Below, piece by piece: positions 24,477 to 25,448 of a DNA stretch of 64,000 nucleotides (positions are counted from its first letter, which is position 1; each line of letters opens with the position of its first letter). The stretch lies in NCBI RefSeq assembly GCF_003018255.1, contig NZ_CP027440.1; one strand, 5' to 3'. The stretch is from Escherichia coli (GTDB lineage Bacteria; Pseudomonadota; Gammaproteobacteria; Enterobacterales; Enterobacteriaceae). The translations under genes were made by a program, and so were the position numbers. The notes under the pieces were generated by a model. It had not been told where the DNA came from, did no database searches, and saw only the letters and a program-made list of their open reading frames with translations.

Positions 24477-25004
24477 TATCGCGTCCTCAACAATGAATTT
24501 TGTGATGTGGTGCCTGGTGCCTCCAGGTGACGTTAACCAGTTAACAATTAACGCCGGATTGTTAGTTGATGTCTGTTACGCCAGTAAAAGACCGCTTGTT
24601 TTAACTGTTCCGCGTGCGCTTAGCCGCATTCACCGCATCACAAAATACACTTTAAAAATGGCGGATATCCATTTCCGCCGAATCACCAGAAAAGTGATAA
24701 CAGAGGTTGTTGTGGCGGTGTTGTCACTCAGGCGTATGGTCAACCTGACAACCCGGTGCATTTTCTGGAGCAATGGAGGAAGCCCCAGCCATACTTACCG
24801 CCGCGCCATTTCGCGGATTGCCACAACCGGAAGCGCACGATCGAATTACATTTAACGACGACATATACAGAGAGACTAACTTCGCCGAGCGCTTTCGTGT
24901 TGTGTGCCTGCTTTTAACCACGTCAGGCGAGGTGGACCTGTTATTCCCCAACAACAAGGAGCTTGTTAATCTGGATATCCCCAACAACAATAAGAGTATT
25001 GAAT

Positions 25005-25448
25005 GTGATCGCTGAATTAACGGCAGCAATGACGGCTATTCGTGAAACCGCTCAGATTACAAAACTAATGAACGAGGCAAAAACTCAAGCTGAAGTAAAT
25101 GCGGCTATTGGTGAACTGAACTCAAAGCTTGCATCTATTCAGCACGAATGCGTGTCTCTCGTTGAGCTGGTGAGCACTTATCAAGAAATAAATGCTTCTC
25201 TCAAAGCTAAAATTGCAGAATTTGAAAACTTTGAGGCTCAGACGGAAGGTTATATCCTTAACCAACTTGAGTCGGGAACTTTTGTGTACTCGAAGGAGGT
25301 AACCGTGAACGGCGGCAGCATAATCATGCATCTTTGTCCAAAATGTTTTGGACAAAAGATAGTATCGATACTTCAACCATTCCCGGTTAGAGAACATGAG
25401 TTTTTCATAAAAGCAGGTGCCTCTACTGTGAAAATCAGTTTCTTATGA
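25005..25448 (+). CDS. hypothetical coiled-coil protein with C-terminal CxxC zinc-ribbon-like motif, encoded opposite to the early-left operon
   Basis: ORF 24963-25448; probable GTG start at 25005 or ATG at 25029; predicted coiled coil (...KAKIAEFENFEAQTEG...) and HLCPKCFGQK. Confidence 0.5.
   Translation: MIAELTAAMTAIRETAQITKLMNEAKTQAEVNAAIGELNSKLASIQHECVSLVELVSTYQEINASLKAKIAEFENFEAQTEGYILNQLESGTFVYSKEVTVNGGSIIMHLCPKCFGQKIVSILQPFPVREHEFFIKAGASTVKISFL

Follow-up and report, generated by a model that had tools for sequence, protein, structure and literature searches.

Two described systems provide the context for the locus reported here. The first is the sieB-esc-sas module of the lambdoid phages, the original reference for which is Ranade & Poteete 1993, as cited in PMC10461980 (ref. 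21). Within this module, sas is a cis-antisense RNA that switches the translation of sieB (PMC12197685, PMC7067206); in phage P22 it is 127 nt long, and its RNA-seq sequence has been published (PMC13397905). The second system is Rip1, or "ring interacting pore 1", the gp37 product of phage HK446. As summarized in a meeting report (PMC12908700), Rip1, from the Maxwell laboratory, is prophage-encoded and blocks incoming phage; in the same summary, 12 Rip1 monomers cap the 11-subunit terminase ring, and a pore-based mechanism is proposed. Rip1 is also named among small-terminase-sensing systems in a preprint (bioRxiv 10.64898/2026.04.30.721860). Its structure was released only in 2026 (2026-02-04), as PDB entry 9OOX, with the title [quoted passage not shown]. 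The HK446 rip1 gene lies on the + strand, flanked by N and a ral-like gene, both on the - strand; this is the place of sieB, and the gene is antisense to the pL operon.

The gene described here adds a member to the Rip1 defence family, itself known only recently, and is carried on the long-known sieB promoter/sas module. It is found in a 64,000-nt stretch of Escherichia coli DNA (NCBI RefSeq assembly GCF_003018255.1, contig NZ_CP027440.1), designated as the window, in a prophage of the Rac/Qin-like lambdoid type. The explanation that we consider likely as a whole is that the sieB slot of this prophage holds a moron cassette with a Rip1-family cargo, that the cargo is under sieB-type promoter/sas control, and that the copy in the window has been frameshifted. 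About 1/8 of complete E. coli genomes, O157:H7 among them, encode a "hypothetical protein" that the present comparison places in the Rip1 defence family. Furthermore, the sieB promoter/sas module is not specific to sieB and has been reused with several unrelated cargos, which suggests a general route by which temperate phages could be equipped with suicide-type defences and yet not be killed by them when induced.

An earlier sequence-only reading of the window had noted a single + strand gene inside the leftward early operon and had likened its position to the slot that lambdoid phages use for exclusion genes. Both observations were borne out. The gene runs from a GTG at 25005 to a TGA at 25448, and its neighbours are all on the opposite strand, in the leftward operon:

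26081-26500, - strand: HTH repressor
25633-25785, - strand: DUF1391/ydfA
Listed between ydfA and dicB, - strand: DicF-like sRNA
24288-24476, - strand: dicB
24103-24291, - strand: DUF1482/ydfD
Also in the operon, - strand: exonuclease of 823 aa, then xis and int

The cassette extends from approximately 24895 to 25560. Like HK446 rip1, the gene here occupies the early-left ("sieB") slot, on the strand opposite the leftward operon. For comparison with the sieB slot of Rac in K-12 and its relatives, the near backbones vB_EcoS-666R9 and 673R7 carry "superinfection exclusion protein B" at the position of the cassette, next to YdaG and a regulator; it is the cargo that differs. The idea of an exclusion-gene slot is right because these close relatives annotate sieB at the same place, and it is matched by the sieB-type promoter and by the homology of the product to the prophage defence protein Rip1.

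In the homologues that we studied, the gene is always on the + strand and adjoins a repressor encoded on the - strand. At least four different backbones show this arrangement, among them the Rac/Qin-like type, the truncated O157 prophage beside potC, a yfdP/cI CPS-53-like phage, and int-xis / gene / S24-repressor prophages of Citrobacter and its relatives. The nearest relative in the region examined, STEC435, is 99.9% identical to the window. The ORF is well conserved: its relatives extend across the Enterobacterales, and 647 of the 5,426 complete E. coli genomes, O157:H7 among them, carry 80% or more of the cassette. Close homologues number 101 across the Enterobacterales, in Escherichia, Salmonella, Citrobacter, Klebsiella, Enterobacter, Cedecea, Edwardsiella, Arsenophonus and other genera, and the whole family comprises 2,684 cluster representatives at E<1e-3.

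The location and strand of the ORF in the sequence-only reading stand, but the form of 147 aa found in the window is a frameshift-truncated allele of a gene that encodes 171 aa in its relatives, a point which that reading had missed. The coding features are as follows:

25005-25448, + strand: Rip1-family ORF, truncated, with a GTG start and 147 aa, ending in the frameshifted tail IKAGASTVKISFL and a stop
25335-25346, + strand: first zinc knuckle, CPKC (C111, C114), invariant in alignment A2 and aligning with LCAQC of Rip1
25401-25405, + strand: T5 homopolymer, the site of the frameshift, which is T6 in relatives (alignment A1)
25406-25519, + strand: out-of-frame rest of the ancestral 171-aa gene, HKSRCLYCENQFLMNKNPDYVSPPSIEELARKLNGNL and a stop, reading HKSRCLYCENQ...GNL
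25418-25429, + strand: second zinc knuckle, CLYC (C139/C142, invariant in the 35-sequence alignment), out of frame in the window

A 1-nt deletion in the T6 run truncates the window protein after residue 133. The run is T6 in four relatives from three prophage backbones (STEC435, O157:H7, SCU-105 and PhiR49_1); these encode 171 aa, with a TAG stop that corresponds to 25517-25519 of the window, and RefSeq annotates the 171-aa CDS. C111, C114, C139 and C142 are all invariant in the 35-sequence family alignment (A2). Since C139 and C142 are out of frame after the T5 run, the window product is without the second zinc-ribbon knuckle; the four-Cys CxxC...CxxC feature is therefore absent from it, while intact relatives keep all four cysteines. 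The peptide HLCPKCFGQK, previously taken for the C-terminus of the protein, is actually at residues 109-118 and forms the first knuckle of the four-Cys zinc ribbon. Because the truncation removes two of the four invariant cysteines, the window copy is most likely inactive, barring an assembly error.

The T5 run has arisen by a recent slip that inactivated the gene, or else it is an error at a homopolymer. If it were a sequencing or assembly error, the gene would be intact and active in the organism, and several observations are in keeping with this: over 751 nt there is one 1-nt difference from STEC435, the difference sits in a homopolymer, and the frame downstream of it is otherwise intact and identical. 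Moreover, the exact T5 allele occurs in none of the 5,426 complete E. coli genomes, the 42 genomes with the same subtype being all T6, and the frameshifted tail is unique to the window among 93 fetched loci. However, the identical truncated 147-aa product has been recorded independently in public assemblies (cluster P0007, with 3 members on 2 contigs), and we regard an intact gene in the organism as rather unlikely. A variant of this explanation, in which the frame is recovered by -1 slippage on GAG UUU UUC, is much less likely again, with no stimulatory structure evident at the site. The window copy being frameshifted, phage-challenge or reporter work calls for the intact allele.

Sequence comparison and structural modelling identify the intact protein as homologous to HK446 Rip1 over its full length and as a member of the same family. 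When the single sequence was searched against PDB sequences with phmmer, the one significant match was 9oox_L, which is Rip1 (E=1.1e-7). With the 35-sequence family profile the match to Rip1 reached E=1.2e-19, covering positions 5-152 against residues 15-160 of the 164 in Rip1, with both Cys pairs aligned. The sequence-only reading had predicted a coiled coil and a zinc ribbon, in agreement with the AF2 model of the intact 171-aa allele (pLDDT 85.5), which shows a long helical hairpin (helices 2-24 and 28-79) followed by a beta/zinc-ribbon domain (84-147). Comparison of this model with the PDB by Foldseek gave only two chains below E=1e-3, 9oox_L and 9oox_M, with E about 2e-6, a probability of 1.0 and a TM score of up to 0.71.

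In the profile collections, the sole PHROG match was to phrog_1244, a family of unknown function (E=1.3e-48), and Pfam and NCBIfam gave coiled-coil noise or no match. With these collections, no homology to the SieB protein family was found. Defence-system annotation, a check that had been suggested, gave no match, PADLOC (2023) having no model for the protein; the Rip1 homology came via PDB sequences and structures.

The intact protein and Rip1 thus share a fold, with the helical hairpin and the four-Cys zinc-ribbon beta domain (from the AF2 model in the case of our protein), and they are alike in size, at 171 aa and 164 aa. Both genes are preceded by a sieB promoter/sas-type block, with boxes that read CCCCAACAACAA here and CCCCTACAG in HK446. 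Alongside these similarities there are clear differences, besides the frameshift in the window copy. The N-terminus of Rip1 is Gly/Ala-rich and moderately hydrophobic over residues 11-29 (KD 1.28), and this segment is without a clear counterpart here; the hydropathy of our protein shows no clear membrane segment, its maximum (KD19 1.13) being in the beta domain. In turn, this clade has an extra conserved C-terminal tail, NPDYxxPPSIEEL. Identity between the two proteins is only about 28%, and the trigger and the effector may for this reason differ from those of Rip1. Capping of the small-terminase ring of an infecting phage by a 12-mer is known for HK446 Rip1 only and is predicted here by analogy, and pore formation and abortive infection by this protein are likewise putative.

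Upstream of the gene, a segment of about 100 nt is homologous in sequence to the mapped sieB promoter and leader of P22 and lambda. A search with the HK446 block matched lambda at 34396-34481, directly upstream of sieB, and P22 at 29652-29736, where RefSeq annotates a "sieB promoter" (29690-29720) and a "sieB RNA start site" (29727). Alignment with these phages defines the following elements in the window:

24890-25009, - strand: predicted sas-type antisense RNA region, with UUGUUGUUGGGG twice; complement of the start codon, leader, promoter and hairpin, from homology to P22 sas
24906-24935, no strand assigned: hairpin block GCCTG-N13-CAGGC, overlapping CCAC...GTGG, near-invariant (alignments A3 and A5); its complement in P22 is the 3'-terminal hairpin of the sas RNA
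24945-24957, + strand: repeat 1, TCCCCAACAACAA, aligning with the box 1 (ACCCCTACAG) that P22, lambda and HK446 share, a box that overlaps the sieB promoter annotated in P22 at its -35 end
24967-24972, + strand: predicted -10, TAATCT, in register with TAAACT of P22 (the 3' end of the annotated promoter), TAAAAT of HK446 and TAATAT of 689R2
24978-24990, + strand: repeat 2, TCCCCAACAACAA, aligning with box 2 and starting at the mapped P22 sieB RNA start
24991-24996, + strand: Shine-Dalgarno-like TAAGAG, 8 nt before the GTG, its GAG conserved in alignment A5

The duplicated CA-rich motif to which the sequence-only reading had drawn attention is found here, with both exact copies where that reading had placed them. 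The motif, CCCCAACAACAA, occurs exactly twice in the 64 kb (24946-24957 and 24979-24990), with no further copies when one mismatch is allowed (expected 0.39), and the true repeat unit is 13 nt, TCCCCAACAACAA. In the sequence alignments, the repeats are the form that the two CCCC(A/T)ACA boxes of the module take in this clade, one lying over the -35 and the other at +1: both boxes read (T)ACCCCTACAG in P22, lambda and HK446, and both read TCCCCAACAACAA in the window clade. In an alignment of 22 sequences (A5), the invariant parts were the hairpin block at 24906-24935, CCCC.ACA of box 1, the TAA of the -10, and box 2. At the loci L078-L080 a perfect TATAAT lies two bases to the left of the -10 position. 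The upstream block is better conserved than the gene: compared with loci of other genera, the upstream stretch of about 105 nt is 69-88% identical, against 50-71% (nucleotide) and 41-58% (protein) for the CDS.

On this alignment, transcription of the + strand is predicted to start at about 24978-24979, which leaves about 27 nt of leader, AUCCCCAACAACAAUAAGAGUAUUGAAU-GUG. Repeat 1 is probably untranscribed on the + strand because the alignment places it over the -35 region, and together with the AAGGAG that follows it would be outside the + strand mRNA, in the promoter spacer. A simple consensus scan for sigma-70 promoters called none on the + strand, the predicted -10 included; the promoter on this strand is assigned by homology. 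In summary of the likeness to sieB-esc-sas of P22 and lambda, the promoter, leader and hairpin block are homologous, down to the two CCCC(A/T)ACA boxes, the register of the -10 and the box at +1, and the slot and the opposite-strand orientation are the same, whereas the sequence of the boxes differs and the cargo here (phrog_1244) is unrelated to SieB.

Two other interpretations of the upstream block as coding sequence were considered and rejected. An ORF of 80 aa (24773-25015) spans the repeats; it has no family match, and 1-nt indels among the relatives break its frame. A coding function of the upstream block is ruled out because of these one-base indels. Similarly, the longer starts annotated for some relatives (PhiR49_1, 242 aa; P0025, 243 aa; P0003, 186 aa) run through the promoter block.

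For the CA-rich repeats, the sequence-only reading had proposed enhancement of translation or targeting by GcvB/Hfq, which would act in the 5' UTR of a new exclusion gene. Some features are in accord with this: repeat 2 is probably within the short leader, just 5' of the Shine-Dalgarno-like sequence, AACAACAAUAAG reads as four ARN triplets, and there is an 8-bp match, CAACAACA/UGUUGUUG, to the R1 region of GcvB. Nevertheless, we consider it very unlikely as an account of the repeats. Repeat 1 aligns with the -35 of a mapped promoter, and the homologous boxes in P22, lambda and HK446 are CCCCTACAG. The CA run itself decays in the orthologous loci L008 (CCCCAACAGTCAG) and L010 (CCCCAGCAATAAG), and also in L086; what is kept is CCCC(A/T)ACA alone. 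The GcvB target fared no better. Using the GcvB sequence from MG1655, the duplex between R1 and the predicted leader was calculated at -13.6 kcal/mol, an energy within background, as 77% of 140 control ORF starts in the window were as good or better. The same reading had each copy followed by a sequence resembling a ribosome-binding site. After repeat 1 there is indeed AAGGAG, but it is not conserved, relatives having AAGGAT, CAGGAA or AAGAAA; after repeat 2 there is TAAGAG, with a conserved GAG. Repeat 2 may still have an enhancer or Hfq role, but the CA run is not the conserved part.

The strand complementary to the block provides a further correspondence with P22. The published P22 sas RNA (PMC13397905) is the exact reverse complement of the block in P22 (L097:1185-1311), extending from the start codon of sieB through the leader and the promoter to the terminal hairpin GCCUGACGUGGUUAAAAGACAGGC. 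By this sequence homology, we infer that the complementary strand in the window corresponds to a sas antisense RNA. When the folds of the antisense RNAs were compared with shuffles, the z values were -1.8 for P22, -1.6 for HK446, +0.2 for the window and +0.9 for L006, and the predicted window leader folded no better than its shuffles. The four antisense RNAs share just one stem in their folds, that of the hairpin; it never varies in the 22-sequence alignment, so covariation is uninformative for it. No - strand promoter for the antisense RNA was called in P22 or in the window. For the element, Rfam gave no match, whether in the window, in P22 or in HK446, from which we conclude that sas is absent from Rfam. 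Additionally, no conserved internal Met from which an Esc-like product might start was present in the first 30 codons, M9 and M22 being variable (A2), and for this reason the P22 "switch" is not literally transferable to this gene.

The lack of a thermodynamic signal in the antisense RNA of the window clade is one of the observations that would fit a different role for the boxes, as operator sites for a protein or as plain promoter elements, acting at the DNA level and without an antisense-RNA function in this clade. The boxes are direct repeats 33 bp apart, or about three helical turns, and they bracket the region from -35 to +1. In addition, box type is uncorrelated with cargo: one type accompanies both sieB and rip1, and in phage F1055 the window type accompanies an unrelated ORF of 83 aa. 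On the other hand, no candidate binding protein was identified, and in P22 the same block is expressed as the sas RNA. We regard a purely DNA-level function as unlikely, and favour sieB-type promoter/sas control of the Rip1-family gene.

Under the favoured explanation, the cassette would operate in the following way. The cargo would be the 171-aa Rip1-family protein, with its N-terminal helical hairpin and C-terminal four-Cys zinc ribbon, and the lysogen would produce small amounts of the intact protein. Given its homology to HK446 Rip1, this protein may serve as a prophage abortive-infection sensor. It would assemble on a ring-shaped protein of the infecting phage, probably the small terminase, and assembly on the ring would kill or permeabilise the cell, aborting the infection. 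When the phage's own leftward operon is transcribed, a sas-like RNA (24890-25009) would be produced that pairs with the leader, the Shine-Dalgarno sequence and the start codon. This pairing would shut off translation of the toxic defence protein, and the phage would be spared from its own system.

A broader version of this scheme, possible but on balance doubtful, is that the PsieB/sas block constitutes a portable "self-exemption" cassette. Its abortive-infection cargos (SieB, Rip1, the Rip1-like clade, and the ORFs of F1055 and SfII) would be expressed in the lysogen and silenced by an antisense RNA cut from the leftward transcript of the phage itself, and the box variants CCCCTACAG and CCCCAACAACAA would represent specificity types of the antisense RNA. 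If this were true, the box variants would decide which superinfecting relatives can switch off the defence of the resident prophage.

The sieB module is portable, as Salmonella phage F1055 and Shigella phage SfII also have the 5' block, or the hairpin alone, joined to small ORFs that are unrelated. A further explanation for the high conservation of the flanks is that they could be "boundary sequences" for recombination, through which mosaic lambdoid phages exchange cargo, with no regulatory constraint. Four or more unrelated cargos are found next to the 5' block (sieB, rip1, the rip1-like clade and the small ORFs of F1055/SfII), and the edges of the cassette coincide with homology breaks between backbones. 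These facts are compatible with a regulatory role as well, however, and the P22 promoter, transcription start and sas all map inside the block, the invariance of which persists at protein identities of 41-58%. We regard conservation through boundary function in place of regulation as unlikely. Mosaic recombination, rather than selection, could be behind part of the high upstream identity.

The 3' end of the cassette has a conserved feature of its own:

25534-25556, + strand: conserved 3' element GGATATCCAGATTGTTAAAGAGC, after the true stop, forming an imperfect inverted repeat (I1) with 24968-24993, in the -10/+1 region

The inverted repeat that flanks the gene (24968-24993 and 25521-25546) was considered as a long-range pairing and rejected, as one-arm changes occur at L078-80, L009 and L012 without compensation. 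In most contexts the 3' element is followed by an intrinsic terminator, AAGCGTCCTGTAGGGCGCTTTTT, which has been replaced in the window and in the O157 contexts.

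Homologues of Rip1, the HK446 defence protein (PDB 9OOX), are encoded at 31-32% identity by Mu-like Pseudomonas phages (phage records H65-H85), among them D3112, DMS3, MP38, JBD30 and JBD69, where they lie in the orf25 region, a genomic position different from that of HK446 rip1. The Rip1 family therefore reaches well past the lambdoid phages.

In several public annotations, the start of the gene has been placed far upstream:

L001 (phage relative PhiR49_1) 3396-4124, annotated CDS, 242 aa
P0025, protein cluster of homologues, 243 aa
P0003, protein cluster of homologues, 186 aa

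We rejected these N-terminal extensions, in which the reading frame crosses the promoter/sas block (e.g. ...IPQQQ...ISPTT...); since the block itself is translated in them, they are almost certainly artefacts.

The 5' module of the gene, a sieB-type promoter, leader and hairpin, serves morons as a portable front end. It was also seen fused to unrelated small ORFs of Salmonella phage F1055 and Shigella phage SfII:

L102 (F1055) 895-1256, hairpin and window-type CCCCAAC boxes, then an 83-aa ORF
L103 (SfII) 901-1162, hairpin only, then a 63-aa ORF

At the other end of the gene, a 23-mer is kept across genera downstream of the stop codon (the window, L005, L006, L008 and L011-L013):

25534-25556, 3' of the gene, GGATATCCAGATTGTTAAAGAGC

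Within it, the -10/+1 sequence AATCTGGATATCC recurs in inverted orientation. At most loci a terminator comes after the 23-mer, and the loop of this terminator, CCTGTAGGG, is similar to the P22-type box read on the complementary strand.

Three further features of the prophage were located:

24655-24700, minus strand, DicF-like sRNA upstream of dicB (terminator stem 24660-24679)
26508-27381, plus strand, YdaS-like HTH gene and "toxin YdaT family" gene, at the cro and cII positions
21536-24007, minus strand, exonuclease, 823 aa

The DicF-like sRNA has the 5' seed UUUCUGGUGA and the terminator in common with the annotated DicF of phage Tritos but lacks ~19 nt of its central part. Rfam did not call DicF in this region; its sole match there was STnc100 (24444-24661), which at 33 bits stayed below the gathering score of 47. 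The YdaS-like and YdaT assignments are taken from RefSeq, which annotates them at the nearly identical locus of STEC435, and in Rac such genes likewise occupy the cro and cII positions. The middle of the exonuclease is a long, acidic, Q/E/P-rich low-complexity stretch containing a zinc-knuckle-like motif, CTACGQTGGGNCPDCG; the 3'-5' exonuclease part follows at the C-terminus.
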